DNA from: Candidatus Omnitrophota bacterium
GTDB taxonomy: Bacteria > Omnitrophota > Omnitrophia > Omnitrophales > Aquincolibacteriaceae
Assembly: GCA_043803685.1 (NCBI GenBank)
Contig: JAZDJU010000006.1
Coordinates: 1 to 26,293, forward strand
Direction: 5' to 3'
Length of the DNA: 26,293 nt
The number at the start of each line of letters is the position of its first letter. The stretch's first letter is position 1. The notes under the pieces were generated by a model. That model was not told where the DNA came from. It did no database searches and saw only the letters and a list, made by a program, of their open reading frames with translations. This document shows positions 1 through 25,100 of this stretch, in pieces. The translations under genes were made by a program, and so were the position numbers.

Positions 1-568
1 TGCCTGCAACTTCCTCTGTTTGGCCCGACAAGGTCACGTAAAATTCCAGTTGTGGATTGATCGAAAGCCCCACTTTCATCATCTTGTATCCTTCCGTCAA
101 GGAATCCGCGGTCGGTTTCAGGACGAGCACCCATTTATCCAGAAGAGAAATCGCCCGCTCAAAATGAAAGAGATGGCGATACTCGAAATCCAGAAAAATG
201 TCCCGGTTTTGAAGCATTCCGGACACTCGAGGGGCCGAGGGCCCGCTAACGAGATCACGCAACTCGTCCCAATAAAGACTGTACCGCTCCATGTGTTCCC
301 CGAGAGATTCTCGCGCAGAACCCTCCGCGCCTAAAAAGCTCCGGTTCGTTCGTGATAAGAGGCTCAAAAGCGAACACGCCCTCCCAGGCGAGGCGATCTG
401 CGACGCGAAGAACGTGTTCAGGAGAAGCGAATCCCCATCACAATCGGGAGTCGAAACGCCTAGCACCTGGATCTCCGGAGAACGGCGCGCCGGGAGATCC
501 ACGGAGGCGTCTCCAAAAAGAGGCGAAATATCCTTCAAGCCGCGCACAAGCTTGCGAGAGTCATCCAT
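1..568 (-). CDS. Degenerate MinD/FlhG/ParA-fold protein (probable pseudo-ATPase), 3'-truncated by window edge; not in the ORF track
   Basis: Manual translation from ATG at 568-566 (overlapping the upstream TAA as TAATG) is open for 189 codons to the edge: MDDSRKLVRGLKDISPLF...IQVLGVSTPDCDGDSLLLNTFFASQIA...RDIFLDFE...LLDKWVLVLKPTADSLTEGYKMMK...; the last segment resembles the FlhG/MinD 'ADEVLVVTTPEPTSITDAYALIK' segment. Confidence 0.8.
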   Translation of the reverse strand, partial: MDDSRKLVRGLKDISPLFGDASVDLPARRSPEIQVLGVSTPDCDGDSLLLNTFFASQIASPGRACSLLSLLSRTNRSFLGAEGSARESLGEHMERYSLYWDELRDLVSGPSAPRVSGMLQNRDIFLDFEYRHLFHFERAISLLDKWVLVLKPTADSLTEGYKMMKVGLSINPQLEFYVTLSGQTEEVAG

Positions 569-1665
569 TAGGCGAACTCCATATAAGAATCAACTCCACC
601 ATACGCATTTTCTTTTTGAACGGGCTGATGGGGATCCACTTGCCACTCCCCGTCTACGATGAATTTATACCGGAAGTTCTTGAGCTCCACCGAAACGACC
701 TTTTGCCAGAGCCCGTCCTGGTCACGGCGGACAAGCGCCTCCGGGATCCAGTGGTTAAAATCTCCGGCGATTTCCACCGAGGAGGCCGTTTTGCTTGAAA
801 ATTGAAAGAGGATCCCATCCGAGATCTGGCGCGGGCCAAAATGATTCTTAAAAACCTGTTCCCAGCCCAGCTCTTTCTCGGGAAGCCGCCGGTTCCAGTC
901 CCTTTCCAGATACTCCACAGCGAGATTCAGATAGTCTTGAAAAGCCTGCGATTGAGGCGCGTACTGATCGATGCTCTGTCCTGCGGCCGCCGCTTCCTTA
1001 AGACTGATGTGCTCGTGAATGATCGTTGTGAAAAGCCGGTCCTGAAAATGAGCTTTGACCTCGTCATAAATCTCCTGAGAAAAATTCACCTGGGAATTAA
1101 AGATCGTGAGAAGCGCATGAACCGCAAGAGGCGTTTCCCGGCTTCGGTTCACGACCTGAAAAGTCTCTGAGATCTTGGCGAGACCGTGGAGCGAGAAAAA
1201 AGACGGTTCCACTGGAACCACAACCTCATCCGCCGCGCTAAGCGCATTCCAGGTCAGCATGCCGAGATTCGGGGGACAATCCAGGACCACGAAATCGTAA
1301 TGGCACTGATCGTCGATCCGGGTCAGAAGCTCGCGAAGCTTGAGGTGATAGTTGGGCATGAATCCAAATTCTTCCTCCAAAGCATTCAGACTGCCGTTGC
1401 ACGGGATCAAGTCGAGATCCGTCCTTAACGGCTGGATCACTTCGGAAAAAGATGCGGCAACACGCTGAAGAGGGCTTAAGAGATCGTAAAGAGTACGCAT
1501 CCCCTTTTGCGTCTTAACCCCCCATCCGATCGTCGAATGGCCTTGGGGATCAAGATCGATGATGAGGACTTTTTTTTGAAGAAAATTGAGACAGGCAGAG
1601 AAATTAATACTGGTCGTTGTTTTTCCACACCCGCCTTTTTGATTCGCGATGGCAATCACTCTCAA
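568..1665 (-). CDS. ParA/Soj-family ATPase with C-terminal CBM48/AMPK-beta-like glycogen-binding domain
   Basis: Deviant Walker A ANQKGGCGKTT, A' IDLDPQG, Walker B LDCPP; C-terminal ~85 aa VEIAGDFNHW...GLW...FRYKFIVDGEWQVDP...NAYGG matches the CBM48 pattern; TTG start with AAGGAG at 1679-1674 (8-nt spacing). Confidence 0.93.
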   Translation of the reverse strand: MRVIAIANQKGGCGKTTTSINFSACLNFLQKKVLIIDLDPQGHSTIGWGVKTQKGMRTLYDLLSPLQRVAASFSEVIQPLRTDLDLIPCNGSLNALEEEFGFMPNYHLKLRELLTRIDDQCHYDFVVLDCPPNLGMLTWNALSAADEVVVPVEPSFFSLHGLAKISETFQVVNRSRETPLAVHALLTIFNSQVNFSQEIYDEVKAHFQDRLFTTIIHEHISLKEAAAAGQSIDQYAPQSQAFQDYLNLAVEYLERDWNRRLPEKELGWEQVFKNHFGPRQISDGILFQFSSKTASSVEIAGDFNHWIPEALVRRDQDGLWQKVVSVELKNFRYKFIVDGEWQVDPHQPVQKENAYGGVDSYMEFA

Positions 1666-1861
1666 GAATCCATCTCCTTGAATTAAATGTAACTGGTACT
1701 AATGTAACGGCTTAGCTTAGTAAACCTTTATAGTAATGAGCTTCCCAAGGAGAGAATTCGCGGCGAAAAAGTGAAATCACAAAAAGAGTTTAAAAATGAA
1801 GAACGCTTTAATAAGATCGATGGGGAGGAAAGTCTTATCGGACGCTGGAAACAGCTAGGTT

Positions 1862-2815
1862 TCAGCTCTTTTCAAATATGAGAAGCCGCTCAACCGGGAC
1901 CACACCCTTGAGGTCTCCGGCGCGATCGGTCACAACGGCATACGACTGGCGTTTCTTCTGCAGGGTTAGAAATGCTTTTGCGAGAGAGGTGTCTTCCGGG
2001 ATAAAAATGGGAGCCCGAAGAAAGTCATGCAAGCCTTGCGCGTTCTCCGCCTCCCATAGAATATCGAAAACATAGACCATCCCCATGATAAGGGACGGGA
2101 TTTCTTCATAGACGAGCATCATACGAGCGTTCGTTTCCCGCGCGATCCTTTTGACATCCTCGATCTTGCTATGGATATCCACCATCGGGACTTCCCCCGC
2201 CGGCACCATCACCGAGGAAACATGGATCCGTTCAAAATCAAGAATGGTGTGGATCAACTTTTCTTCTTGCGGCCCCACAATGCCTTTTTGGGTGCTCTCA
2301 TCGATCAAGGAGCGGAATTCTTCTTCATTCACGAAAATATCCTGCGCCGCGCCCTGATGGAGGGAGGATCCCAAAAAGCTCAACATCTTGAAAAAAAGAA
2401 TGATCGGTCCGTACAGAACCGCCTTGAGACATTTCAGAGCCAGGATCTGTCCCATCAAAAACGGTACGGCATTCAGCCGGCAGTAATCTTTAGGGACCAT
2501 TTCCGCAAAGATGATCAGTAACGGCGCCACCACTAACATCACGGCCCACTCGCTATTCCAACCGAAACACTCCTTAAAAAAAAGGGTTGCGATAGAGATC
2601 GCCATCACATTGACAACATTGTTCCCGATCAGGATCGCGGTTAGAAAATAATTGGGATGCCGCTGAAGCTCCATAATGAACCGGGCCTTGGGGTCCCCAG
2701 CATCCGCCATCTCGCGAAGTTTCAGCTTATTGGCCGAAACAAAAGCCATTTCAGCCCCCGAAAAGAACGCGGAAGCGACCATGGCGAGCAAGAACAACGT
2801 CAGCAACCCGATCAC
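1862..2815 (-). CDS. CNNM (DUF21) + CBS domain membrane protein, lacking the CorC C-terminal domain
   Basis: SAFFSGAEMAF, ILIGNNVVN, IFAEMVPK motifs; CBS region VMVP...PIFIPE; GTGA overlap with upstream paralog. Confidence 0.9.
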   Translation of the reverse strand: MIGLLTLFLLAMVASAFFSGAEMAFVSANKLKLREMADAGDPKARFIMELQRHPNYFLTAILIGNNVVNVMAISIATLFFKECFGWNSEWAVMLVVAPLLIIFAEMVPKDYCRLNAVPFLMGQILALKCLKAVLYGPIILFFKMLSFLGSSLHQGAAQDIFVNEEEFRSLIDESTQKGIVGPQEEKLIHTILDFERIHVSSVMVPAGEVPMVDIHSKIEDVKRIARETNARMMLVYEEIPSLIMGMVYVFDILWEAENAQGLHDFLRAPIFIPEDTSLAKAFLTLQKKRQSYAVVTDRAGDLKGVVPVERLLIFEKS

Positions 2816-4047
2816 GACTTCCTCCTGACCGTGACCTGATGGATACGTTGACGAACCATGTCCTGGATCACAAAATCGAATTGTTCCGTCTGCAGGGTCG
2901 CCCCTTTCGCGGGAACAACCCCCATTTTTTCAAATAAATAGCCCCCCATCGTCGAAGCTTCCTCCGCCACGAGATGTGCGGAAAAAAAATCATTGAATTC
3001 CGATAGACCGACCTTCCCCTCCACCAAATAGAAATCTTCACCTAGCCGCCGGATAGGGTTTTCGACCTTGGCATATTCATCGTAGAACTCCCCGAATATC
3101 TCCTCGAGAATATCCTCCTGCGTCACCACGCCGGCCGGTCCGCCGAATTCATCCACACAAACAGCAAAGCGCTCATTCTTGCTCCGGAATGTCTCCAGAA
3201 GATCATCGATCCGCTTGCTCTCCGGGATAAAAAGAGGCTCCTGCATCACACGTTTCACGTCGGGAAGAGGCTCCTGCAAAAGATAGTTCTGAGATTCAAC
3301 GACTCCCAGGATGTGATCCATCGAACCCTGAAAAACAGGAAGCCTCGTAAAGTGGCACTTCCGGATCAGCGCCTCATGTTTTTCAGGCAAGTCTTCGATA
3401 TCGAGCCCCATCAGGTCCGTTCGCGGTGTCATAATGTCCTTGACTGGCCGCTCGCCAAGGTCCAGCAGTTTCTGGATCATATGACGCTCCTGACCTCCCA
3501 AAACTCCCTCTTCCTCGCCGATCTTCACCAGGACCTTTAATTCCTTTTCCGAGATCATATCCGATTGATCGATCCTTTCATGAACAAGAAAAGAAAGAAC
3601 ACGGTCTGTTACAAAACGCATCAAGACCCTAAAGGGAGTGAAGATCATCGCGAAGAACTTCAACGGAAGGGACACGCACAGCGCCACTTTGGCTCGCGCC
3701 CTGACCGCAAGGATCTTGGGGAACATTTCGCAAAAAACGATCAGGAAAAGAGTAAATACCACCATCCACGAACCTAGATGCGCGTTTCCGAAAAGCCTGA
3801 GGATCACAAGGGCTACAATCGCCGTCGCCAAAGAATTCACCGCCAAATTGCCGATCAGGACGGTACTGAGGGTTTTTCGCGGCTTTTGCAGATGCTCAAA
3901 GATCCATTTCGACAAATGCGGGTGCTGTTCCTTGAGTTTTCGTTTATCCAGTTTGGATAGCGAGAAAAGGGCCGTTTCGGACGCGGAAAAGAAAAAAGAA
4001 AGAAGGAACAGGATCCCCAACACAACCCAATGCATGATCATTCCCAC
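2812..4047 (-). CDS. Hemolysin-family/CorB-type CNNM + CBS + CorC_HlyC protein (putative Mg2+/Co2+ transporter)
   Basis: FFSASETALFSL, LIGNLAVN, IMTPR, FTRLPV, VDEFGG..GVVTQEDILEEIFGEF, C-terminal CorC domain STMGGYL; exact start uncertain (GTG 4047 or ATG 4041/4035). Confidence 0.92.
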   Translation of the reverse strand: MGMIMHWVVLGILFLLSFFFSASETALFSLSKLDKRKLKEQHPHLSKWIFEHLQKPRKTLSTVLIGNLAVNSLATAIVALVILRLFGNAHLGSWMVVFTLFLIVFCEMFPKILAVRARAKVALCVSLPLKFFAMIFTPFRVLMRFVTDRVLSFLVHERIDQSDMISEKELKVLVKIGEEEGVLGGQERHMIQKLLDLGERPVKDIMTPRTDLMGLDIEDLPEKHEALIRKCHFTRLPVFQGSMDHILGVVESQNYLLQEPLPDVKRVMQEPLFIPESKRIDDLLETFRSKNERFAVCVDEFGGPAGVVTQEDILEEIFGEFYDEYAKVENPIRRLGEDFYLVEGKVGLSEFNDFFSAHLVAEEASTMGGYLFEKMGVVPAKGATLQTEQFDFVIQDMVRQRIHQVTVRRKS

Positions 4048-10894: not shown

Positions 10895-11299
10895 TTAGAC
10901 CTCGTAAACACTCGCCGCTTTTAATATCTCTGCTGCGGCAAAGACCGGCACCTGTGCACGCAAAGCAATGGCGACGCTATCGGAAGGGCGGGAATCGATC
11001 ACCACTTCTTGGCCATCGTTTCGTTGGATGTACAATTTGGCATGAAACGTATTATTTTCCAGTTTATCGATCACGACCTTCTCAAGCTTGCCACCCAGTT
11101 CCTGAACAATCTTAAGCATGAGATCATGAGTCATCGGCCTGGGCGGCTTCACATTCCCGAGTTTAAGCTTGATCGCATGGATTTCCGGAAGTCCGATCAC
11201 CACAGGAAGGAATCGGTTCCCGTCCTTTTCCCGGAAAACGACAAGCTGCTCATGGCGATTCTCATCGACCTTGATCTTGCTCAACACCATTTCAATCAT
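10895..11299 (-). CDS. Bifunctional nuclease family protein (DUF151)
   Basis: RFLPVVIG..E, RPMTHDL, FHAKL, IDSRPSDSVAIAL; start re-set to ATG 11299 (GAGG SD, overlaps upstream stop). Confidence 0.92.
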   Translation of the reverse strand: MIEMVLSKIKVDENRHEQLVVFREKDGNRFLPVVIGLPEIHAIKLKLGNVKPPRPMTHDLMLKIVQELGGKLEKVVIDKLENNTFHAKLYIQRNDGQEVVIDSRPSDSVAIALRAQVPVFAAAEILKAASVYEV

Positions 11300-12863
11300 C
11301 AACGACCTCGGGACGAACGTGGGATGCATGAACTGACGCGGCCGCTGAAGAAGACGCGCGTTTCCGCGGCTCCGTCACAACCCCCTCGTGCTTCGCCTTC
11401 TCAGCAAGATGCCGTTGGGCCTGCCTCATCTCGATCACTTCCCGTTCGGTCGTTTCCTGCTCCGCTAAAAGTTTCCGCATATCCTCCTCGCGGTCACGGA
11501 TCTCAGACTCGATCTTTTCCTGTTGTTTGACGATCTGCTTCAGACGCGCTTCATGGGTCACCAGTTGCTCATGGAACTGGGCCTTTTTTTGAATCGTTTC
11601 CCGCTGATCTAACTCGTCATGAAGTTGGCGAATCTCTTTGCGGGCATTTTCAAGGTCCATCTCCCGGGCCTCAAGCTGCGCCAAGCGCACCTGCCAGGAC
11701 TTTTGCTGATCTTCAAAAGCCCCTCGCATCTGCCGGATCTCCTTCTCGGATTCGGAGGACCTCTGCTCCCAACGTTTGGCCTGTTGCGCCTGAAGCTCTA
11801 GCTCCTGAATCAACCGGGTTTCGCTCGACTGAACGATCCGCTTACCCTCCTCAAGATTCTTGATCTTCGCTTGAAGGCCGTCGACCACGGTCTTCTGGCT
11901 ATCCAATTCCCTCTGGAACTGAGACGCCTGACTTTCCCATTCACGACGCGCCTGTTCCTGTTCGTCCCGGGCGCGTTGAAGATCATTTTTTACGGAATGG
12001 AAACTTTTGAGAAGCGCTTGTTTCTCCTGAAGCATCTCTTTATGGTTAAGATCCCGCTCTTCGATCTGCTTCAACAGTTCTTCGCACTTCCGATCTTCAG
12101 CGCTCAACTTCTCCTCAAAATATTGCCGCGTTTGACGGAACTCTTCCCGGAGAAGCTCGTATTTTTCCTCTGCATGGTTCATCGAGTTCTGCAACTCCTG
12201 AACTTCCTTTTCTCTGTGCCGAGATTCGGCTTCGCTGGCTTTTGCCGCCTTTTCTTTTTCCGAAACTTCCGCTTGCGCCTTATCCAACGCCTTCCGGAGC
12301 TGACTCTCACTTTCCTTCAGACCCACACTTTCCTTTAAGAGAGTCTCACGTTCTTCCTCGAGAATGCTCCGAAAATGGCGCCCATTCGGATTCGCCATGC
12401 CGTTTTTCAGCGGTGCACGATCCCCACGCTCCTGAGAAACACTCTCGGTCTGGACCCACGACCGGATCTCCTGGATCGCTTCGCTGTGCTCAATTTTTTC
12501 GGTTTTATTTTTTGGCGGAGTCTCGGCTACAGCATCCACCTGATGAAGAAAAGCGAGACTCGGCGGTGTGGGCCATACGGTCCGATAACATCGTCTTTTC
12601 AAGAGGCCATCACTACTGACAACAATGTCCGCCTGAGAGTTCCGGAAGTGCTGCTTTAGCTGTAGGGCTGTCGCATAGAGAAGGTTATCCATCAGGATAA
12701 TGGGAGTGTTTTGAACGAGATCAAAAGCTTCATCTTCCGGAAGGCGAAATGCCTTAGCGATCTCGCGGGCGATCTTGTTACGCTCGAGCTCACTCTTGAG
12801 CGGATTGAGGACCACGAACCAATCCTGCCCGCCTGGTTGGACCTTTTTAGTACCCGTAAGCAT
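11292..12863 (-). CDS. Long coiled-coil protein with N-terminal ribosomal L7/L12 C-terminal-domain-like module
   Basis: About 330 aa of E/K/Q/R-rich heptad sequence; residues ~14-84 resemble L12 CTD (EAFDLVQNTPIIL...ALQLKQHF..SQADIVV). Confidence 0.8.
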   Translation of the reverse strand: MLTGTKKVQPGGQDWFVVLNPLKSELERNKIAREIAKAFRLPEDEAFDLVQNTPIILMDNLLYATALQLKQHFRNSQADIVVSSDGLLKRRCYRTVWPTPPSLAFLHQVDAVAETPPKNKTEKIEHSEAIQEIRSWVQTESVSQERGDRAPLKNGMANPNGRHFRSILEEERETLLKESVGLKESESQLRKALDKAQAEVSEKEKAAKASEAESRHREKEVQELQNSMNHAEEKYELLREEFRQTRQYFEEKLSAEDRKCEELLKQIEERDLNHKEMLQEKQALLKSFHSVKNDLQRARDEQEQARREWESQASQFQRELDSQKTVVDGLQAKIKNLEEGKRIVQSSETRLIQELELQAQQAKRWEQRSSESEKEIRQMRGAFEDQQKSWQVRLAQLEAREMDLENARKEIRQLHDELDQRETIQKKAQFHEQLVTHEARLKQIVKQQEKIESEIRDREEDMRKLLAEQETTEREVIEMRQAQRHLAEKAKHEGVVTEPRKRASSSAAASVHASHVRPEVVDD

Positions 12864-12936: not shown

Positions 12937-13278
12937 TTAGAAAGTGATGCGTCCGGCGATCTCATGGACCACTGGAATCTCCCACCGCTCCCCCATCAGG
13001 ACTTTCACGATCCCGACAAGCGAAAGGATCCCGAGCACCACGAATGAAAGCGTAAACACCAAGTCCCCAAAGACGGGAACAACTTTCAGGATCGCTGCGG
13101 CCAATTCCAGGATAAAAAGAACCAAAGCCTGTTTTCCGTGAAAAAGTGCGAATTTATTCTCTTTCTTTAGCATCAGTGGCACAAAACAAAGAAAACTCAT
13201 GTAGCCGATCGCCGCAAAGAACTGCGCATCCCGGATATCTGCGTCCTTAGCCACTCCAACCTTTTCATTCGTTGTCAT
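12937..13278 (-). CDS. DUF4870/Tic20-like small membrane protein
   Basis: AAIGY...VPL..K..N.FA.FHGKQALVL, three hydrophobic segments, G..W.IP tail; SD AAGGAG. Confidence 0.85.
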   Translation of the reverse strand: MTTNEKVGVAKDADIRDAQFFAAIGYMSFLCFVPLMLKKENKFALFHGKQALVLFILELAAAILKVVPVFGDLVFTLSFVVLGILSLVGIVKVLMGERWEIPVVHEIAGRITF

Positions 13279-13743: not shown

Positions 13744-14376
13744 TCAGCCCTTCCGGATCAAACGCCACGGATGCAATTTAAGTTCGGCAGTCATATCCCG
13801 AAGATTCGCCGAAACCTCATGCAGATTGCCAAGGCTCTTGGAAATCTCCTCTTTGTTCCCTCCAATGACATCATTCACGTTCTTGAGCAAAGGGTTCAGA
13901 CTTTCGGTCATATTTGAAACCTCATCAGCTAAAAGATTCATCTTGCGAATCAAAACATGCATCGGGATCGGATCCACACCCTCGATGACTTTTCCGGTCT
14001 CCATGGGAGGGGCATCGTTTGAACCGATGGATATCTCAATAAACTTTTCGCCCATCATCCCGAGCGTATCGATATAGGCCACACTATCCTTGCGGACATA
14101 GGCATCCTTGGAAACCTTGATCGTCACTAAGACCGGCCTCGTTTGTCCGGGGAGGATCTGGATACTATCGACTTTGCCGACTTCACGACCCGCATAATAA
14201 ACAGGCGCGCTATCGCTCAAGCCGCTCAGATACCCAAACTGGACCTTCCATTCGTTGGCCCCTTTCTTGAAGTAGCCCCCCACCACGAACGTGAGCACCA
14301 AAAGCAGCACGAGAGAGACCAGCACAAAAAAACCGGACTTGATCTCGGATGACGAATAAGCATTAGATGAATCCAT
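13744..14376 (-). CDS. mlaD: MlaD/MCE-domain protein
   Basis: EIKSG.FV + TM helix, SGL...APV.YAG.EVGKV, I.TLGMMGEKFIEI, helical tail ending PWRLI. Confidence 0.9.
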   Translation of the reverse strand: MDSSNAYSSSEIKSGFFVLVSLVLLLVLTFVVGGYFKKGANEWKVQFGYLSGLSDSAPVYYAGREVGKVDSIQILPGQTRPVLVTIKVSKDAYVRKDSVAYIDTLGMMGEKFIEISIGSNDAPPMETGKVIEGVDPIPMHVLIRKMNLLADEVSNMTESLNPLLKNVNDVIGGNKEEISKSLGNLHEVSANLRDMTAELKLHPWRLIRKG

Positions 14377-14401
14377 TTTTCCCTCCTTCAGGAACGACCG
14401 C

Positions 14402-15208
14402 TTAAGTGGAAAGAAGCCCTTTTAAATAAGCTTCACTCGTTTGTTTGAACGGAATAACACCTTCAGACTCTCCGTGAATGAACTGCTGGACATACGAATC
14501 TTTCGAATTTTTGACCTCTTCGGCCGTACCGATCTGCAGTACCTTGCCTTTATGAAGGATGATGATCTTGTCCGCAATGCGAAACGCGCTTTTCATTTCA
14601 TGAGAGACCACGACCGAAGTGATATTAAGCTTCTTGCTGAGATCCAAAATCAGGCGATCAATCATGCTTGCCGTGATCGGATCCAGCCCCGCGCCGGGTT
14701 CATCATAGAAAACGATCTTCGGATCCAGCGCGATCGCGCGCGCGAGCGCCACACGCTTTTTCATCCCGCCTGAGATCTGATGGGGCATGAAATCCTCAAA
14801 ACCCGTCAACCCCACAAGCTCCAGTTTCACCCGAACGATGATACGAATAATCTCCGGAGAAAGCTCCGTGTGTTCCTTGAGCGGCACCGCGACATTCTCT
14901 CCAACGGTCATGGAATTAAAAAGTGCCGACCCCTGGAAAAGCATGCCGTACTTGCGCCGCACATCGTTCATGTCCTTTTCCTTGAGTCCCACGATGTTCT
15001 TGCCATCCACGAGGATCTGGCCAGAAGTCGGTTGATGCAAAGCGATCAGATGACGCAAAAGGGTCGTCTTGCCGCACCCCGAACCGCCCATAATGACCGT
15101 GATCTTGCCGCGTGGGATCGTGACGTTGATACCGTCCAAGACCGTAAGATCCCCGAAACGCTTGATCAGGTTCTTGACTTCAATCACGGATTCTTCGGAT
15201 TCGCTCAT
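14402..15208 (-). CDS. mlaF: MlaF/Mkl-type ABC ATPase
   Basis: GGSGCGKT, GMLFQGSALFNSMTV.ENVA, ISGGMKKRVALARA, YDEP.AGLDP, VSHE; start re-set to ATG 15208 (GAGG SD). Confidence 0.93.
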   Translation of the reverse strand: MSESEESVIEVKNLIKRFGDLTVLDGINVTIPRGKITVIMGGSGCGKTTLLRHLIALHQPTSGQILVDGKNIVGLKEKDMNDVRRKYGMLFQGSALFNSMTVGENVAVPLKEHTELSPEIIRIIVRVKLELVGLTGFEDFMPHQISGGMKKRVALARAIALDPKIVFYDEPGAGLDPITASMIDRLILDLSKKLNITSVVVSHEMKSAFRIADKIIILHKGKVLQIGTAEEVKNSKDSYVQQFIHGESEGVIPFKQTSEAYLKGLLST

Positions 15209-15215
15209 AAATTCC

Positions 15216-16016
15216 TCACGTGGGCAAAGCGTAATAAATAACCGCAGTCGCCAAACAATCCACCACAATGATCAACACGATCGAGATCACGACGGCCTGC
15301 GTCGTGGCTTTTCCGACCGCGTCCGCGCCGCCAGAAACAGAAAGCCCCTGATGACAACTCACGAGCGCGATTAAAATACTGAAGATGAAACTCTTAAGAA
15401 GACCGGTATAGATGTCTTTGAGACAAAGAGCCTCAATACTCTTGGCGATATAAAGATTGGAATTGATCCCGAGCCCCGTCGTCCCGATCGCCCACCCGCC
15501 GATCATCCCCATGACATCCACAATGACCGCCAAACACGGCAGCATCAAGGCTAGCGCAAGAACACGAGGCACAACAAGATAACGGATCGGATTAATGCCC
15601 ATGGTGGTAAGAGCGTCCACTTCTTCCTGAACCATCATGGTCCCGATCTCTGCGGCCATTCGGGCGCCAATACGGCCGGAGATCACGATGGAAGCGATCA
15701 AAGGTCCCAGTTCACGGGCCATTGCAACGCACACAAGACTGCCCGTGTACATAATGGCTCCAAACGTCTTCAAGGAATAGGCGGCCTGCAGGGCTAGCAC
15801 AGTGCCGACGGAAGCACCCACAAGGGAAACGATCGCCGTAGAATCGATGCCGATCAAGACCATCTGGCGAAACAGAACTTCTCGAGGAATAACCTTCTTC
15901 TTGAAAAAAGAAAGGAACGTATAACCGGCTACCGCGGAGCCAAGCTCCCACAAACGAGCCACGCCCGCCAAGACAAATAGAAGCGCTTGCCCGATCTTTC
16001 CCGAAAATTCCATCAT
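15216..16016 (-). CDS. mlaE: MlaE-family ABC permease
   Basis: RELGP...GRIGA..AAEIGTM.V.EEVDAL..MGINP..YLVVPR, GGADAVGKATT.AVV. Confidence 0.95.
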   Translation of the reverse strand: MMEFSGKIGQALLFVLAGVARLWELGSAVAGYTFLSFFKKKVIPREVLFRQMVLIGIDSTAIVSLVGASVGTVLALQAAYSLKTFGAIMYTGSLVCVAMARELGPLIASIVISGRIGARMAAEIGTMMVQEEVDALTTMGINPIRYLVVPRVLALALMLPCLAVIVDVMGMIGGWAIGTTGLGINSNLYIAKSIEALCLKDIYTGLLKSFIFSILIALVSCHQGLSVSGGADAVGKATTQAVVISIVLIIVVDCLATAVIYYALPT

Positions 16017-16047
16017 ATAAAAATATCCCTTAAAGGTCCGCTCAGGT

Positions 16048-16386
16048 TTAAGAGCCTAAACACTTTTCCGCTTCTGCGACAGTCGAAGCAATCTCGAAAA
16101 TACTGTCGAGTTTGGCGATCTCAAAAACACCTCGTACCGTCGGCGTCAGCGCCGCAAGAATAAGACGGCCCTGATAGCGCTTTGCCTTCTGAAATGCCTC
16201 GACGAAGGTCGCAATACCGGAGCTGTCCATATAGTCCACGCCGCCCAGATTCACGAGGATCTTGGGAGCTTGCTTCGAAGTCAATTCCGTCAACTTCTCA
16301 CGAAGTTCGGGCGACGAATGATAATCGAGTTCTCCTGAAAGTTCCAGCACCTGGATGTCCCCTTGACTCGTTAATTGTACTTTCAT
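16048..16386 (-). CDS. STAS-domain protein, SpoIIAA/RsbV-type anti-sigma factor antagonist (possible MlaB role)
   Basis: LSGELD, VDYMDSSGI with the phospho-acceptor Ser, VFEIAKLD. Confidence 0.92.
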   Translation of the reverse strand: MKVQLTSQGDIQVLELSGELDYHSSPELREKLTELTSKQAPKILVNLGGVDYMDSSGIATFVEAFQKAKRYQGRLILAALTPTVRGVFEIAKLDSIFEIASTVAEAEKCLGS

Positions 16387-16402
16387 GGATCACCTGCCTT
16401 TT

Positions 16403-16807
16403 CTAAATTTTGGTCTTGTGCTTGATTAAGCGAAGCCGGTTTCCCGCCGGCCCCTGATCGTCATAGATCATTTGGTCCATGATGGATCGGATAAAATGAA
16501 CTCCAAGGCCTCCCGGTTTATGACGCGGGAGCTCTGGCGGCGGCACTTGCGTCGGATCAAATTTCTTGCCGCGATCTTCCAGGACGATATCTATCTTGTC
16601 TTCAGCCGCAGTAACGGAAACCGATATTTTCCCGGCACCGCCCTGGTAGGCATGACGGATAATATTTGTTAAAGCCTCATCAACGGCCAGAAGGATCTCT
16701 TCAGTAGCCTTTTTTTCCCATCCCGTCTGGCCCAGGATCTCGCGAAGTTCTTTCCGGAAAGGCGAAAGGACCTCCGAAGATGCATTCAGTTCAAATCTTT
16801 TTTCCAC
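16403..16807 (-). CDS. RsbW/SpoIIAB-like serine kinase (HATPase_c_2)
   Basis: LAVDEALTNIIRHAY (N box), EDRGK.FDP (G1), GGLG..FI..IMD (G2); start re-set to GTG 16807 (G-rich SD), overlapping the end of ribE. Confidence 0.9.
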   Translation of the reverse strand: MEKRFELNASSEVLSPFRKELREILGQTGWEKKATEEILLAVDEALTNIIRHAYQGGAGKISVSVTAAEDKIDIVLEDRGKKFDPTQVPPPELPRHKPGGLGVHFIRSIMDQMIYDDQGPAGNRLRLIKHKTKI

Positions 16808-17457
16808 TCGCCCCCCCGCTGAAGAAGTTCCCGAAGGATCGTTCGAGACGAAAAAACCTTCCGGGATCGCTCTTTGGCAAAGCACATTTGGAGATAGCGC
16901 GCGACGATATCGATCTCCAGATTCACTTCCGAACCCACCCGTTTAAGACCCAAGGTCGTGACCTTGAGCGTATGCGGGATCACCGCGATCTGAAATGTCT
17001 TCCCGCGAACTTTCTGCACCGTCAAGCTGATCCCATCACAAGCAACAGACCCTTTATCCGCGAGAAGCTGAATTATATCCTTGGAAGCGGTCAAGAACAA
17101 GGTCGTATTCCTGCCTCGCTTCTCGATCTTCACGATCGTGCCACGGCCATCGATATGCGCGGTCACAAAGTGCCCGCCCAGTCCAGACCCGATCGTGAGC
17201 GACCTCTCAAGGTTCACTCGTCCACCGTGTTCTAACGATCCCAACGTGGTCGCCTCCAGGGTTTGGCGCACCACATCCACTTCAAATCCGCTTGGCTGAA
17301 CACGCACCGCGGTGAGACACACTCCAGACACCGCAATGCTGTCGCCGATCTTCAGACCTTTCTCTTTTCTCCAGAACCGGAACCCGAACCGTACCTGGCC
17401 GCCGCGTTCCTCTTTCTTTACAACGATCCCCTGATTCTCAACAATCCCTGTGAACAT
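16786..17457 (-). CDS. ribE: Riboflavin synthase (alpha chain)
   Basis: MFTGIVE, GDSIAVSGVCLT, VNLER, GGHFV.AHIDG, KGS..DGISLT, IPHT, VNLE.D. Confidence 0.96.
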   Translation of the reverse strand: MFTGIVENQGIVVKKEERGGQVRFGFRFWRKEKGLKIGDSIAVSGVCLTAVRVQPSGFEVDVVRQTLEATTLGSLEHGGRVNLERSLTIGSGLGGHFVTAHIDGRGTIVKIEKRGRNTTLFLTASKDIIQLLADKGSVACDGISLTVQKVRGKTFQIAVIPHTLKVTTLGLKRVGSEVNLEIDIVARYLQMCFAKERSRKVFSSRTILRELLQRGGEWKKDLN

Positions 17458-17468
17458 AGTCCCTTCCC

Positions 17469-18584
17469 TTATTTTTTGTGAATAGTCCCTTCAAAGATCC
17501 AGTCGTCCCCTGATTGCGTCACGCCGGACGTTTTAAAAGAAAAGGCTTCGTGCGGAGCCCCCACGCCCAGACCTTCCACGGATGTCTTGGCGCGCCGTCC
17601 TCCGAATATCTTCGGCGACAGGATCCAAAAAGCACGATCCACACATCCAGCCGCCAAAAATGACCAAGCCCATTCTCCTCCGCCTTCCACCAAAAGTTTT
17701 GTCACCCCTAGCGCCGCGAGTTTTCTCAAAAGTTCGCGAACGCCAACCCGGCCCTGCTTTTCCATGACAGGCAAAAGCATCAACGTTCCCTTTTGATTCT
17801 CGGACCTTCTGACGATCGTCTTGAGGTCCTTCTCCGGAAATACAAGAATCGTAAGTCGATCATCTTCAAAGATACGTGCTTTCGAAGACCAACCTTTCGC
17901 AGAAACCACGACGATCTTCCAAGGCTTCCCGGCCGCTAGCGAACGTGAGCCCCTCGGAACCGTCAGCCGGGGATCATCCTGGTAGAATGTATTCTTCCCT
18001 ACCAGGACCGCCTCGTGCTCCGCCCGAAGTTTATGAACAAATTCCCGTGAGGGCGGCGAGGAGATCCATCGGGAAAGCCCTTGGCGCGTCGCGATCTTGC
18101 CATCCAGCGTCTGCGCCATTTTAAGCGTCACGAACGGACGCTTTTGGGTCATATATTTGAAAAACCCCTCATTCTGCCGGCGAACTTCGTTTTCTAAAAC
18201 GCCGACCGTAACGGTTATCCCCTGCTGCCGCAAAAAACGGACGCCCTTGCCGCGATTCATAGGATTGGGATCGAGACAACCGATCACCACCCTTTTGATC
18301 CCGTTTTCTTTGATTTTCGTAACACAAGGCGGAGTCTTTTGCCATGTCGCACATGGTTCTAAGGTCACGTAAAGCGTGGCGCCCCGAGCTTTTTTTCCGG
18401 CCCTGGCGAGTGCGTTCGGCTCCGCATGCGCCTCCCCGAATTTTTCATGAAAACCATAACCCACAAGTTTCCCTCCAAAAACAACGCACGCTCCGACCAT
18501 AGGATTGGGACTGACGTAAAAACGCCCCTTCTCCGCCAATGAGAGCGCTCGCCTCATCCACGATTCATCCGGCGGAAGGGTCAT
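17469..18584 (-). CDS. ribD: Bifunctional pyrimidine deaminase/reductase
   Basis: PNPMVGA, HAE, TLEPC...TPPC, K.AQTLDGKIA, DDPRLT, LLVEGG; start re-set to ATG 18584 overlapping the nusB end. Confidence 0.95.
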   Translation of the reverse strand: MTLPPDESWMRRALSLAEKGRFYVSPNPMVGACVVFGGKLVGYGFHEKFGEAHAEPNALARAGKKARGATLYVTLEPCATWQKTPPCVTKIKENGIKRVVIGCLDPNPMNRGKGVRFLRQQGITVTVGVLENEVRRQNEGFFKYMTQKRPFVTLKMAQTLDGKIATRQGLSRWISSPPSREFVHKLRAEHEAVLVGKNTFYQDDPRLTVPRGSRSLAAGKPWKIVVVSAKGWSSKARIFEDDRLTILVFPEKDLKTIVRRSENQKGTLMLLPVMEKQGRVGVRELLRKLAALGVTKLLVEGGGEWAWSFLAAGCVDRAFWILSPKIFGGRRAKTSVEGLGVGAPHEAFSFKTSGVTQSGDDWIFEGTIHKK

Positions 18585-19014
18585 GATCCTTGGGGGCCTT
18601 GGGTTTTTCGGTGTGGCTGATCTTGTCCAGAACGCCATTGACGAATTTTCCGGATTCTTCCTGAGAAAATTTTTTGGCCAAATTCACCGCTTCATTCAGG
18701 GTCACCTTCGGCGGAACATCGGCAAGGTAAAGAAGTTCGTAGGTTGCCAAACGCATGATGTTACGATCGATCATGGCCATCCTGGAAATTTCCCAGTTGT
18801 CCGCATAACGCTCAATGACCTTATCGATCTCCGGAAAATTCTCGACCGTTCCGGCCGCAAGCTTCCCCGCAAAACTGCGGACGTCTTCGGCAAAGGCTTC
18901 ATCCTGCTGCGTCCAGAATTTCCCAAGAATCTCAGGGATCGGTTCCGGATTCATCTCGTACTGATAGAGGATCTGAAGCGCGCACTCCCGGGACTGTGTT
19001 CTTTTGCGAAGCAT
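18565..19014 (-). CDS. nusB: Transcription antitermination factor NusB
   Basis: R..SRE.ALQ.LY, W...RM..IDRNI.RLA.YEL, P.KV.LNEAV.LAK.F, FVNGVLD. Confidence 0.96.
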   Translation of the reverse strand: MLRKRTQSRECALQILYQYEMNPEPIPEILGKFWTQQDEAFAEDVRSFAGKLAAGTVENFPEIDKVIERYADNWEISRMAMIDRNIMRLATYELLYLADVPPKVTLNEAVNLAKKFSQEESGKFVNGVLDKISHTEKPKAPKDHDPSAG

Positions 19015-19048
19015 GGAGTTTCCTTTGTGCCCACCCCGAAATCGAAAG

Positions 19049-19546
19049 CTATTTCTTTCTCTTCAGGGCTTTGGGACTTTTGACGGATAACTGATCGTTA
19101 AGACTGGCGATCTCGAGCGCGGCTAGCGCTGCCTGCTCGCCCTTATTACCATGTTTGAGTCCAGCGCGATCGATCGCCTGCTCCAGATTATCGACCGTGA
19201 TTACGCCAGTCGCGATCGGGGTCCCCGTCTCAAGCGCCACCTGATCGATCCCACGCGTCAATTCATTCGACACACATTCAAAATGGTAGGTCCCGCCACG
19301 AATCACGCAACTGAGCGCGATCACGACATCGCAATGCTTCTGAGTTTTTATTTTTTTGCAAAAGAAAGGGACTTCGAGGCCGCCGGGAACCCAAACAACC
19401 TTGATATTCCTCTCCGGCACCCCAGCCTTGCGTAAGGTGGTGAGAGCTCCCGCCAGCAATCGATCGGTAATGTATTGATTGAACCGGGAAACGATGATGC
19501 CAAATTTTCTGTTCCCCGCAATGATAGATCCGTGATAAGCGTTCAT
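19049..19546 (-). CDS. ribH: 6,7-dimethyl-8-ribityllumazine synthase
   Basis: SRFN..IT..L..GA, VPG..E.P, VIRG.T.HF, QA.DRAG...GNKG. Confidence 0.96.
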   Translation of the reverse strand: MNAYHGSIIAGNRKFGIIVSRFNQYITDRLLAGALTTLRKAGVPERNIKVVWVPGGLEVPFFCKKIKTQKHCDVVIALSCVIRGGTYHFECVSNELTRGIDQVALETGTPIATGVITVDNLEQAIDRAGLKHGNKGEQAALAALEIASLNDQLSVKSPKALKRKK

Positions 19547-20757
19547 GATCCAGACCCCGGACCAAAGAGATGCCCCAGCTTGTCTTTCTTGGTTTGCATA
19601 TATTTTGCGCTCACTGGATTGTGTGGCATGACAATGGGAAGGCGCTCAACCACCTGTAATCCATAGCCCTCCAACCCCACGATCTTCCGGGGATTATTCG
19701 TCATGAGACGCAGTTTCGAAAGACCAAGGTCGTGAAGGATCTGGGCCCCGATCCCGTAATCCCGAAGATCCGGTTTAAAACCAAGGGCTTCATTCGCCTG
19801 GACCGTATCCAATCCGTGCTTGTCCTGCAATTCGTATGCTTTGATCTTATTCGCCAGACCGATCCCTCGGCCTTCCTGACGCATATAGAGAATGACGCCC
19901 GCACCTTCCTGCTGGATCATCTTCATGGCGGAAACCAACTGCTCCTGGCAATCACAACGCAAGGAACTCAAAACCTCCCCCGTAAAACATTCTGAGTGTA
20001 CGCGCACAAGCGCCGGCTTGTCGCCGATCTCTCCCTGGATTAGTGCGACATGTTGCGCCCCATCAACGAGCGACTCGTAGATCCGGATGGTCCAGCTCCC
20101 GAATTTTGTCGGAAGATTCGCCTCGCTCACTTTTTTGACAAGCTTGTCCCTCTGTGTACGATAGGCGATCAGATCCCGAATTGTCCCGATCTTGAGTCCA
20201 TGGGTCTCGGCAAACGACAAAAGATCAGAAAGACGCGCCATTTTACCGTCATCATTAATGATCTCGCAGATCACGGCGGCCGGAGGAAGTCCAGCGGCCT
20301 GCACCAGATCCACGGCAGCTTCCGTATGACCGGCCCGGCACAACACACCTCCGCGCTTTGCCAGCAACGGAAAAATATGCCCCGGGATCACGAGATCTTC
20401 GCGCCGCGTCTTGGCGTCCGATAAAAGCTCGATCGTTCGATTGCGGTCGTATGCCGAGATCCCGGTCGTGACACCGATCTTCGCATCCACCGATACCGTG
20501 AAAGCTGTTTTCATCGGATCCTCCGGCGCAGGGTTCATCTGATCGAGCCCGAGCGCCTGAATGCGGTCTGCCGCCATGGGAACACAGATCAACCCGCGCG
20601 CAAATTTCATCATGAAATTGACCATCTCGGGAGTCGTCTTAGATGCCGCAAACACAATATCCCCCTCATTTTCGCGAATCTCGTCATCGGTCACGATGAC
20701 CATACGTCCATCGCGAAGATCCTGGAGGATCTCATCGGTCGAATTAAGTGATTTCAT
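19543..20757 (-). CDS. ribBA: Bifunctional DHBP synthase / GTP cyclohydrolase II
   Basis: DDE.RENEGD, TAFTVS, RAGHTEA, VRVHSEC.TG......[32 protein letters not shown] 20757 (GGAG SD) or GTG 20763. Confidence 0.97.
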
Positions 20758-20791
20758 ACTCACTCCGAAGTTAAATTAAAAAACTTGGGAC

Positions 20792-22128: not shown

Positions 22129-22157
22129 ATTCTAACCCAGCGAAAATTTTATTGCAA
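22129..22157 (-). promoter_or_regulatory. Sigma70-type promoter of the SPFH gene, overlapping the stop of the giant gene
   Basis: TTGCAA (22157-22152), 17 nt, TAGAAT (22134-22129). Confidence 0.6.
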
Positions 22158-25100
22158 GCCACCAATCTCCAGAAGAAGATTACCGGAAGTACCGCTCAAT
22201 ACGGAGTACTGGTCCACGCCAAATTTGATCGATTTCACCTTGCTGAGATCGACCTTCGCAGCCGCGAGAGCTGTCAGGAATTTGTAATAACCCGACCCGA
22301 CAATATCTGTATTGGATGTGCGATAGGTATTCCCCTGCGCATCCTGGATTTCAATATTGATGTTCGTCGCTGTGGCTGAATTGATCCCGAAGATCAGCTG
22401 TGAGACTGCAGAGAGGTCGGCACTGCTCCCATTATTACTGGGATCGAAATTCAGCTTGATCTCCGCAAAGGCGTTCGCCGCCGTCAGATCAAAATGAAGG
22501 TTGAAAAGGTTCGTACCCGCCGTGTGCTGAAGCGTACTACCTGCGGAGGAACTCACGAGTTGCGCGACACCGCTTACAGAAGCGCTGTTGGCTGGCAGCA
22601 CCGTCACCGCCGGTGAACCTGCCTCCGCCGTAAAAGCCACTACAGGCGCGGACGGCACATGCTGGAAATTCATGGCGTGAAGGGTGAAGTCCGCGGTCGC
22701 GTCTCCCCCCTCCTGCGCATCGGCAACAAGATCGATCTCACGAACATTCGCGAGGATCGCATCGTCCGGAAGATCGATCACAAGGCGCGCAAACTCCGCT
22801 CCCTGTTGGAGAGCTACAGTTGTCTGATAAAGCAATGTTCCCGAGCCATCCTTGAGCTCAAGACGCACAAGCTGCGGCGAATCCACCGCGGAGTACTGGA
22901 GGATCAGTTGGTTCGCCTGAGCATTATAGTTCTGATCCAACATCCAAAAATGTCCGCCATCCACTCCCAGAAGGTTGGTGTAAGCGAGACGCACTCCATA
23001 ATTCTGCGTCGTCGCCGCCTGGAAATGGTTGATCGTGCCTTCGGAGCTTAAGTTTGAGAAAACCGCCATCGAGCGGTCCGGGAACTCGGGAGCACTCGGA
23101 AGATCCGAAGTGGTCCGGCTGACATTCAGCTGTCGACTCGTACTGTCATAAAGAGTGTTGTATGCGTTTTCAAGCCCACGGTTCCGAAGATAGGCCGTGA
23201 AGTCGGCCGGACCATTCCCCGAAAGACCCAGGATCGTCGACGCCACGTCAATGCCGAGAAAACGATTGCTGACCTCGGTGCTGGACCGGGCGCCATCGTA
23301 AAGCCCGTAGCTCCCCGTCGTCCCAACAAGGTTATCGATGGCATACAGCCATCCTAAGACCGCGTTATGATCAATCGCCCTCGCGGACGCCAACGCGTAT
23401 GTGGAACCCACATCGCCCAAGATCGTATTCGTGGAGGAGGGCACCATATTGGCTTCGGCGATCTCCGGAATACCCGCCCCTCCGGCATAACTCCCCTCAG
23501 GGGTCATACTCGCCGACAGAATACCGGGAATGCGGTTCTGATAGGCATAGTCCAACTGGGTCGCGAGCATATTGTAAAGCGAATTCCTGAAACCGATATA
23601 ACTGCTCTCATCATTGCGAAGTGCGGGCCAAAAAGTCTGGAAGGCCCCGCCATCCCACGGAGCCAGATTCTCGATCACAACCCCGTTCCTGTCAGTGTAA
23701 GCGTCATTAGTACTAGTAGCCAGATTGCTCCAAACGGAATTAGGGACTCCCGCGTAATAGACCGCAAGGAACGCGACCGCACCGCGAAATTCATTCGCAA
23801 GACGATCGATATAACCAGAATAAGCCCCGTCAGAAACGTCATAGGCAGCACGGAAAATACCAAAAGTGCCATCGACGAAAGACGCGTACCCCGCAGCCTG
23901 GTTATTGAGATATTGATCCGCTTGAGTCGCGGCCTGCTGAGCAGAAGTGAGCTCAGCGCCAGTCAGTCCCGCTGATTCAAGCGCTCCTACCATCACAGCG
24001 ATACTCTGAGACAGGTTGGCATTGTCCCCCAAAGCGATTGTATCGCCACTCGCCGCCGTGGGATTCAGATTAAGCCACGGGATCATTCCATTCCAACCAT
24101 AAGTGGTTTGAGCGCTACGTAGATTCGTCATGACCGTATTGATCTCGGTCAAAGCCTCACTCCGCGTCATCCCGTTGCTGATCTTCCCAGACACGACATC
24201 ACCCAGGATCTGCAAATAGAAACCAATAAGCGTAGGCTGGGTGTAACGACCCGGAGTAGCCCCCGCAGTGCCCAAATTATCGTAGGGAAAATGCGTCGTC
24301 GAATCGACTCCCACACCGATATCAAAATAATCGAGGCCCTCCTGGACCAAAGCGGCCTTCGTCGCTTCAAAAACAGCGACGGGTGTCGGCGCAGCATAGG
24401 AAAGCCCCGGCGTCTGAACCCTGACGAAGTCGTTCATGCGGGGAGATCCGATCGTATGATCCTGGACGAACACGATTTCCTTGATCTGTGCATAGTTCAC
24501 TCCCGCAGGAATATTGAGAGTGAAATTCTGGAACGAAGAGGTCAACTGGATCACAAAAGTGGCCTTATTATTGCTCGCATCCGTGATCTCGATCTTTGTT
24601 CGCTCCCCATCCGATCCACGAGCCGCGAAAACATACTGCGCACTTGGAAGACTGTAAGCCACTCCACCCAACGTAAGCGCATTGAAGGCAAAACAGGTCG
24701 GACTCGGAGAAAGATCATATTCGTATTCGAATTCATTGGCCGAATTCTGCGTCATTCTGAGCACCGCCGCCGGCTCACCGGAGGTGATGTTGCCGGAACC
24801 TGCGGCAATAACGGGGTTGGAAGCCGCGAGAGAAGTCAACCCAGCATAATTGTAAGTCGACCCGGTCACCGCCGAAACATATTTCAAGCCCTTCGTTTCC
24901 ACGGTGTAATCCGTCGTCCCAACCTCATCGCTCACGAAATTGATCGCCGCCATCGTCGTGGTGAACCCCGTCAGATCAAAAGTGAAGTTCTGCTGCGCCG
25001 CGGCGAGCGTCACTAAAAACTCTTTCTTGACGCCTAGCGTGTTCAAAAACTCAATTTTAACCTTTTTCCCGACGGTACCATTTAAGGCCAGGATCACACT

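Follow-up and report, generated by a model that had tools for sequence, protein, structure and literature searches.

A ParA ATPase fused to a predicted glycogen-binding module, with a degenerate ParA-like partner, suggests a cell-organizing switch tied to stored glycogen

What would a ParA-type ATPase do that carries, on its own chain, a carbohydrate-binding module (CBM) of the kind that recognizes glycogen? This question is raised by one gene, here called ParA-CBM48, in a stretch of 26,293 nucleotides (nt) from a Candidatus Omnitrophota bacterium (GCA_043803685.1, contig JAZDJU010000006.1, positions 1 to 26,293 of the forward strand); this whole stretch is referred to below as the window. ParA/MinD ATPases are the general-purpose positioning machines of bacteria and, in all studied systems known to us, they reach their cargo through a separate adaptor and use the nucleoid or the membrane as their surface. 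The combination found here, a ParA ATPase with a predicted glycogen-binding domain and a degenerate ParA-like partner, suggests a cell-organizing switch tied to stored glycogen. More specifically, we propose, with a probability of roughly 0.4, that ParA-CBM48 is a housekeeping ATP switch that would grip glycogen granules and help to position or partition them, with an activator of its own. If this is true, it would be the first ParA with direct recognition of a storage polymer as its cargo or matrix, and it would offer a handle on whether, and by what means, bacteria govern where glycogen is placed and how it is inherited.

Domain anatomy and spread of the ParA-CBM48 family

A preliminary description of this DNA, made from its letters alone, had read the gene as a ParA/Soj ATPase followed by a linker and a CBM48 domain, and this anatomy was borne out by Pfam and by an AlphaFold2 (AF2) model. 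The gene and its parts are the following.

568..1665, minus strand: ParA-CBM48 gene, 365 codons plus a TAA stop, TTG start (list of open reading frames (ORFs), Pfam, AF2)
1674..1679, minus strand: Shine-Dalgarno-like AAGGAG, 8 nt before the TTG start (read from the sequence)
901..1665, minus strand: Soj/ParA-type ATPase domain, residues 1-255, with deviant Walker A, DLDPQG and DCPP
817..900, minus strand: linker, residues 256-283, predicted flexible, the fastest-evolving part
571..816, minus strand: CBM48/AMPK-beta-type module, residues 284-365 (Pfam and a profile match to the AMPK beta1 CBM)

Another gene caller placed the start two codons later, which gives a protein of 363 aa (P0001). On the ParA-CBM48 protein, AAA_31 covers residues 1-178 (E 9e-49, 166.2 bits), AMPK1_CBM residues 292-358 (E 2.1e-10, 41.1 bits, cut-off 26.8) and CBM_48 residues 276-341 (30.2 bits, cut-off 22.4). 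AAA_31 and AMPK1_CBM, the two families that had been named for checking, both lie above the Pfam cut-offs, and their E-values rule out chance matches. The motifs KGGCGKTT, DPQG and DCPP that had been read earlier were all found in ORF 568..1665: the deviant Walker A KGGCGKTT at residues 10-17 (nt 1615-1638), DLDPQG at 37-42 and DCPP at 129-132. The signature lysine, the Walker A' aspartates and the Walker B aspartate are all present, and K10, K15, D37, D39 and D129 are each invariant (70/70) in the family alignment, whose 70 ParA-CBM48 sequences underlie all counts of residue conservation and pairwise identity given here. A sequence search of the PDB returned M. xanthus ParA (8ray, E 5.5e-46) and T. 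thermophilus Soj (E 6e-41) as the best solved relatives. With Foldseek, the ATPase part matched Soj/ParA structures at template-modelling (TM) scores of 0.92-0.93 over ~255 columns, and McdA, BcsQ and MinD appeared among the lower matches. The AF2 model, built from the 70 family members, has a mean predicted local distance difference test score (pLDDT) of 88.4 and is laid out as a Soj-like alpha/beta domain (residues 1-260), a low-confidence linker (264-274, pLDDT below 50) and a C-terminal beta-sandwich. The modelled strands of the latter cover residues ~279-363, that is, nt 577-831, in good agreement with the range of ~571-834 expected for the CBM.

The pattern by which the module had been recognized is present in the protein as GDFNHW (301-306), YKFIVDGEW (333-341) and YGGVDS (355-360). 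A profile of the family CBM made from 59 segments matched the CBM of AMPK beta1 (1z0n) over the whole domain with an E-value of 5.1e-15; weaker matches were to pullulanase, the starch phosphatases LSF1 and SEX4, and GlgB. In the profile alignment, W306, K334, W341 and G356 of the window protein fall on W100, K126, W133 and G147 of AMPK beta1. In AMPK beta1, W100G and K126Q are reported to abolish glycogen binding, and W133L and G147R to weaken it (PMC6274970). Within the family, the Trp at 306 (70/70), Lys or Arg at 334 (70/70), the Trp at 341 (69/70) and the Gly at 356 (70/70) are kept almost without exception, and the AMPK-beta glycogen-binding positions overall are conserved in 58-70 of the 70 members.

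In pairwise comparison, the ATPase averages 46.7% identity and the CBM 42.6%, against 16.6% in the linker. Divergence was also compared among five close relatives (10 pairs), using the nonsynonymous rate (dN) alone because the synonymous rate (dS) was saturated and dN/dS ratios were mostly not computable; in 9 of the 10 pairs, the CBM had a lower dN than the ATPase. The CBM is under purifying selection and, across the 70 family sequences, its conservation is close to that of the ATPase.

Genes of alpha-glucan metabolism stand near some members. In a sister clade of Omnitrophota, the order is a GH57 enzyme, a 192-aa membrane protein and ParA-CBM48, with GH57 on the same strand 0.6-1.7 kb upstream in eight loci. 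Within 10 kb, a GH57 with the C-terminal domain of a branching enzyme was found at L023, L040 and L057, GlgC at L055 and L070, and GH77 at L078. Glycogen synthesis is listed for most Omnitrophota metagenome-assembled genomes or genera of Ace Lake (PMC8542988). Together, the conserved AMPK-beta glycogen-binding positions and the nearby glucan genes lend support to the predicted link to glycogen.

To place the protein among its relatives, we scanned one genome per GTDB species, which gave at least 587 stretches, and examined the best 80 loci (designated by L numbers) with up to 10 kb on each side. The CBM is retained in 67 of these 80 loci (65 by a through-running match and two cases with a longer linker by Pfam); 12 of the remaining 13 have no CBM and one is broken off at a contig end. 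In a set of 5.8 billion proteins, the best 120 matches all carry PF13614 and PF16561, and the named members among them are entered as 'AAA family ATPase' or 'chromosome partitioning protein' of Candidatus Omnitrophota. The ParA-CBM48 fusion is therefore a family and not a one-off. It is large, mostly uncultured and spread over several phyla: the best 80 of the at least 587 stretches bear the labels Omnitrophota, Planctomycetota, Acidobacteriota, Thermodesulfobacteriota, Eisenbacteria, Zixibacteria and Pseudomonadota. These phylum labels cluster on a quick maximum-likelihood tree with 80 rows, which shows 15 changes against a shuffled mean of 27.5; a value as low occurred in none of 200 shuffles. 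The Omnitrophota members form two clades, in one of which the window protein lies, with L001 as its nearest relative (90% identical). Searches with the CBM by itself were less telling. Its profile gave 21,499 matches at E 0.001 or below among 1.84 billion representatives, a count that is uninformative on the fusion because the best 150 are all multi-repeat proteins matching in 2-19 stretches; a word search with the CBM region returned 82 matches, all of them ParA-CBM fusions, by a method that reaches close relatives only.

The preliminary description had named no characterized ParA-CBM48 fusion. The fusion itself is already in print, in a purely computational bioRxiv preprint by Li, Burroughs and Aravind, dated 22 October 2026 (10.64898/2026.10.19.760177). 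As described there, the CBM-containing system (the ConB5 branch) has two variants: one with an upstream single-pass membrane protein that bears a periplasmic CBM, and a second in which ParA-CBM is joined by a second, rapidly evolving inactive ParA and an inactive restriction endonuclease (REase). Our literature search on ParA/MinD ATPases in connection with glycogen binding or positioning found, among the papers listed, nothing besides this preprint on AMPK1_CBM with ParA.

The partner gene and a proposed ATPase cycle

The ATPase had been taken for an orphan. This assumption does not hold, since a co-translated partner gene overlaps the ParA-CBM48 stop codon by one base.

2..568, minus strand: 5' part of the partner gene, 189 codons, broken off at the window end; its ATG overlaps the stop in TAATG
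512..553, minus strand: N-terminal peptide of the partner, residues 6-19, KLVRGLKDISPLFG, candidate ATPase-activating motif

A GGAG lies 8 nt upstream of the partner ATG, and the ParA-CBM48 stop and the partner start share one base (TAATG); judged from this arrangement, the ParA-CBM48 gene is translationally coupled to its partner. The possibility that the downstream ORF is spurious was considered and rejected, as it is conserved, is co-oriented and has a start that overlaps the stop codon. With an iterated hidden Markov model, the partner was found directly downstream in 39 of 81 loci (the 80 relatives and the window), 73 of which have at least 600 nt of downstream sequence. Full-length relatives are mostly ~260-330 aa long. 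No Pfam family was found in the window copy or its near relatives, and three of ten scanned partners, all of them distant (L040, L060 and L057), pass the Pfam cut-offs of CbiA, ParA or AAA_31. Aligned with hhalign, the partner family matched the ParA-CBM48 family with a probability of 92.7% (E 4.4e-7, 163 columns). Because the fold matches while the Walker A lysines align to non-lysine residues, the partner is a ParA fold without a P-loop. An Atlas look-up of the partner, which offers leads only, returned unnamed Omnitrophota clusters first and then clusters named MinD/ParA at 0.90-0.91.

The N-terminal peptide of the partner has the consensus KLxRGLxD[IV]SxLF in 38 sequences, with G10 and F18 invariant and R9, L11 and S15 conserved in at least 90%. 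It precedes three different C-terminal domains, namely the ParA-like domain, a Cys-rich domain in Desulfobacterales and a third type in Acidobacteria, and this occurrence on unrelated domains points to the peptide as a constant functional element. We propose that it is an ATPase-activating motif. The activating motif of ParB is described as a central Arg/Lys surrounded by positively charged and aliphatic residues, and the ParB peptide by itself is reported to stimulate ParA (PMC12462528). The peptide also occurs, as LGRGLxDxSxxF on unrelated domains, at L037:11082-11645, L066:6084-6734 and their relatives. At L035 and L049, a gene for the peptide stands beside ParAs without a CBM. No RGL-type peptide was found in the GH57 loci of the sister clade.

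A complex of two ATPase domains, two ATP and a fragment of the partner was predicted with a score of 0.58, the best of three controls reaching 0.00; the runs agreed in at least 45% of contacts, the pLDDT of the partner was at least 62, and no interface was reported. Among solved complexes, 116 of 157 attain the mark used for such scores, as do 2 of 215 mismatched pairs, and scores of 0.60 or below comprise only 18 of the 157 solved complexes plus both passing mismatches. Moreover, since the partner itself resembles ParA, the passing score may stem from similarity to ParA dimers of known structure. This modelling gives weak support to a partner-ATPase complex.

In close relatives (L002, L003, L005 and others), the partner is followed by a third gene of ~180-210 aa, which would lie beyond the window end. 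It matched no Pfam family. Its model (pLDDT 76) has as its best structure matches the REase-fold nucleases NucS/EndoMS, PaqCI, YaeQ and SfsA, all of them weak (E 0.03, none at or below 0.001). In these proteins (L002:3977-4513 and relatives), a C-terminal helix bears an LSxEE..L motif, one Glu of which is invariant in 13 of 13. Read from its genes, the window cassette is the second variant of the preprint: the fusion and the inactive ParA were confirmed, and the REase-like third gene was seen in close relatives only.

From these elements, an ATP-driven cycle may be proposed for ParA-CBM48. With its intact motifs and fold, the ATP-bound Soj-like domain would form a sandwich dimer. The dimer would be bivalent for a granule, because a CBM48 is attached to each subunit through a flexible linker of ~30 residues, and it may bind the granule surface by avidity through the two modules, much as the C-terminal helix of MinD binds the membrane only in the dimer. 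The basic and hydrophobic peptide of the partner would then dock on the dimer and trigger ATP hydrolysis, upon which the dimer would split and the single CBMs would let go. In most relatives, which have the two DNA-binding arginines of Soj, the dimer might also bridge granule and nucleoid in the manner of a classical ParA tether, and the ancestor of ParA-CBM48 probably did so. In the subclade of the window (Q192, S221), any contact with DNA would come from the partner and the REase-fold third protein; contact with DNA or with the divisome would thus be delegated to partner proteins. As a net effect, ATP would drive the spread or partitioning of glycogen granules (or of a complex that is anchored to them) when the cell divides. 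A rationale for such a system is offered by E. coli, in which unpositioned glycogen condensates are reported to gather at the old pole and to skew division (PMC11042326). A bolder form of the proposal, unlikely to be right as a whole, is a 'reversed' Par system: the ATPase would ride on the glycogen granule by the CBM48 grip of its ATP dimer, and an adaptor made of a dead ParA and a dead nuclease, with the activating peptide, would contact DNA or the divisome. Such a system might spread glycogen bodies evenly and couple the carbon store to division, averting the polar pile-up and skewed division reported for E. coli, which is not known to have such a system.

Known systems offer several points of comparison. 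With ParABS, the locus shares a short basic and hydrophobic N-terminal peptide on the partner, as described for ParB (PMC12462528). It differs in that the ATPase has a C-terminal CBM48 and the partner is a dead ParA-like protein rather than a CTPase ParB, and no parS or parB was seen at the ParA-CBM48 locus. MinD-MinE resembles the proposal in a C-terminal grip on a surface that would require the ATP dimer and in a reset by an activator peptide (the MinD fold matches at TM 0.77-0.85), but MinD has an amphipathic membrane helix where the window protein ends in a beta-sandwich CBM. McdA-McdB uses a ParA-family ATPase to organize a cytoplasmic body that is not DNA (McdA is a more distant match, at Foldseek rank 11, TM 0.85, PDB E 4.4e-12). 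McdA makes contact with its cargo by way of the adaptor McdB, with the nucleoid as its matrix, whereas in the window protein the predicted cargo-binding module is fused to the ATPase itself. The beta subunit of AMPK/SNF1 has the closest solved CBM, with the same Trp/Lys/Trp/Gly positions, and tethers a nucleotide-regulated enzyme to glycogen, as is predicted here; AMPK is a eukaryotic kinase scaffold, whereas the present module is bacterial and sits on a ParA ATPase. A functional analogue is PhaM/PhaF, which tethers the polyhydroxybutyrate granule to the nucleoid for inheritance by the daughter cells; these are unrelated proteins without an ATPase cycle, and the polymer is a different one.

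Positioning weighed against other readings

Several observations weigh against a housekeeping switch that positions glycogen. A clear alpha-glucan gene lies within 10 kb in only 14 of the 80 loci, which belong to few lineages and are not phylogenetically independent, and no glycogen gene was found among the window ORFs surveyed by Pfam (25 large minus-strand ORFs). The partner peptide is presumed to resemble the ParA-activating motif of ParB, a likeness that database searches did not confirm: a profile of 38 partner N-termini matched a single, unrelated protein among PDB chains (E 0.26) and no ParB, and tblastn of one partner peptide against plasmids gave no match. The score of the predicted complex is modest in its level, and a dead nuclease-fold gene in the cassette, as the modelled third protein appears to be, is more typical of conflict systems. 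The DNA-binding residues are a further point. Canonical ParA is described as binding DNA through two arginines, R195 and R224 in CcParA (PMC7229837), whose equivalents, when aligned to 8ray and Soj, lie within 'DSR' and 'PRNVR'. In the window protein, Q192 and S221 replace both of these arginines for non-specific DNA (nsDNA) binding. Of the 70 family members, 55 have R or K at position 192 and 31 have K or R at position 221, and 15 (the window protein and 14 relatives) have lost both. Some affinity for DNA may remain in the window protein, as K223 is conserved (K or R in 67/70). Because both arginines are absent, a simple model of a ParA on the nucleoid that moves glycogen is not directly transferable to this protein.

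Two incompatible readings of ParA-CBM48 now stand, immunity and housekeeping positioning. The preprint, which infers immunity from rapid divergence of the CBM and sporadic spread, proposes a sensor of biological conflict: the CBM would sense infection through a glycosylated virion, cell-wall fragments or depletion of polysaccharide, ParA would multimerize and block the invader, and the inactive ParA and the inactive REase would act as extra sensors. It describes exactly the three-gene variant seen here, and the fast divergence of the partner agrees with it and counts against positioning (dN two to three times that of ParA-CBM48, mean column identity 23-26%); the weak REase-fold matches of the third gene and the presence of the family in several phyla also fit. 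Nevertheless, in our data (70 sequences, 80 loci) the CBM is not rapidly diverging and its glycan-binding positions are nearly invariant, and the window clade differs from the system of the preprint in its stable housekeeping synteny. Its gene order is proB-proA-nadD-CNNM-CNNM upstream and a CT398-like coiled-coil gene with mraZ-rsmH-ftsL-ftsI downstream, with CNNM found upstream in 15 of the 18 loci that have at least 3 kb of upstream room and mraZ downstream in all 14 that have at least 3 kb of downstream room. This synteny is fixed across members that are 41-90% identical to the window protein and is unlike that of variable defence islands. Ten cassette proteins gave no significant match in PADLOC (best E 0.00019-0.0059, below 19 bits, in three of the ten), no defence genes were seen among the neighbour clusters scanned, and in the sister clade GH57 adjoins the gene. 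An immune role is unlikely in our judgement. The same synteny raises the thought of a division-site or cell-cycle regulator comparable to MipZ, PomZ or MinD. Glycogen bodies, which are kept out of the nucleoid and are mostly found near the poles, could serve as a spatial or metabolic cue for the placement or timing of the divisome. The cassette lies directly upstream of the CT398-like gene and mraZ-rsmH-ftsL-ftsI in all 14 loci whose downstream sequence is long enough, loss of the DNA-binding arginines would fit a matrix other than the nucleoid, and glycogen accumulation is reported to shift the division site of E. coli (PMC11042326). Adjacency alone is, however, weak evidence, the division and cell wall (dcw) neighbourhood is absent in the sister clade and in other phyla, and no FtsZ- or MinC-like partner was seen, so that we hold a dedicated division regulator to be quite improbable.

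Two further explanations concern chromosome segregation and a loss of sugar binding. ParA-CBM48 could be a plain chromosome-segregation ParA whose accessory CBM docks to glycogen. Its closest solved relatives are indeed chromosomal ParA/Soj proteins (1wcv/2bek, 8ray and H. pylori Soj 6iub), with 33-37% identity, fold matches at TM 0.88-0.93 and the same Walker A, A' and B motifs; some sources name the protein 'chromosome partitioning protein', and in one locus (L070) gidA lies 1.6 kb downstream. The window protein, however, scores 107 bits against the cut-off of 180 of the NCBIfam equivalog ParA_partition, and is far below those of the minD equivalogs as well (42 bits against 213 and 34 against 508). 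As the preliminary description had stated, there is no parB in the window: none of the 25 large minus-strand ORFs carries a ParB family, nor was MinC or MinE seen there. The ParB box II motif occurred only once in the 1.08 Mb of flanks of the 80 loci, in an ORF of 184 aa. With a conserved partner that is not a ParB and both nsDNA-binding arginines replaced, an ordinary segregation ParA is very improbable. Very unlikely, too, is a CBM48-like domain that has lost sugar binding and acts as a module for dimerization or protein-protein contacts. The pocket is not identical to that of AMPK beta1, in which L146 and N150 correspond to F/Y355 and D/N359 here. Against this, 69-70 of the 70 members retain each of the AMPK-site residues (two Trp, Lys/Arg and Gly), and the solved proteins matched by the CBM profile at E-values up to 1e-6 all bind or act on alpha-glucans.

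Neighbouring genes in the window and at related loci

Around the cassette itself (nt 1-2200), no promoter-like sites were found, and terminator-like sites numbered three, with 2.8 expected. Directly upstream of the ParA-CBM48 gene in the window are two tandem CNNM/CorC-type genes (1862-4047, minus strand), which overlap by 4 nt; both have CNNM and CBS domains, and the second also has CorC_HlyC. The CT398-like gene of the window clade, which encodes a coiled coil with a zinc ribbon, is found together with the mraZ-rsmH-ftsL-ftsI genes after it at L003:12400-17300 and in 13 other loci of the clade; the window stops short of this region. A different cassette occurs at L044:7853-11834 and about 8-14 sister-clade loci, where the genes in order encode GH57, the 192-aa protein with its single membrane pass, ParA-CBM48, a membrane protein of 109 aa and a protein of 132 aa, the last with a lysine-rich N-terminal tail and a weak match resembling EF-Tu domain 2.

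Several other genes of the window, all on the minus strand, were noted. Neither tRNA genes nor Rfam matches at gathering scores, the flavin mononucleotide (FMN) riboswitch included, were detected in the window (0 of each). A riboflavin operon (ribBA, ribH, ribD and a ribE-like gene) at 16786-20763 encloses nusB. At 13744-16885, genes for an Mla-like transporter (MlaD, an ABC ATPase and MlaE) are followed by STAS and HATPase_c_2 proteins, which resemble a partner-switching pair. A 523-aa ORF at 11292-12863 has a weak coiled-coil-type match only, and a 113-aa ORF at 12937-13278 has a sub-threshold match to DUF4870. An ORF at 22149-26291 runs off the window end after at least 1380 aa, and no match to a Pfam family was found for it, even at E 0.01. 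A preprint reports giant genes in Omnitrophota.

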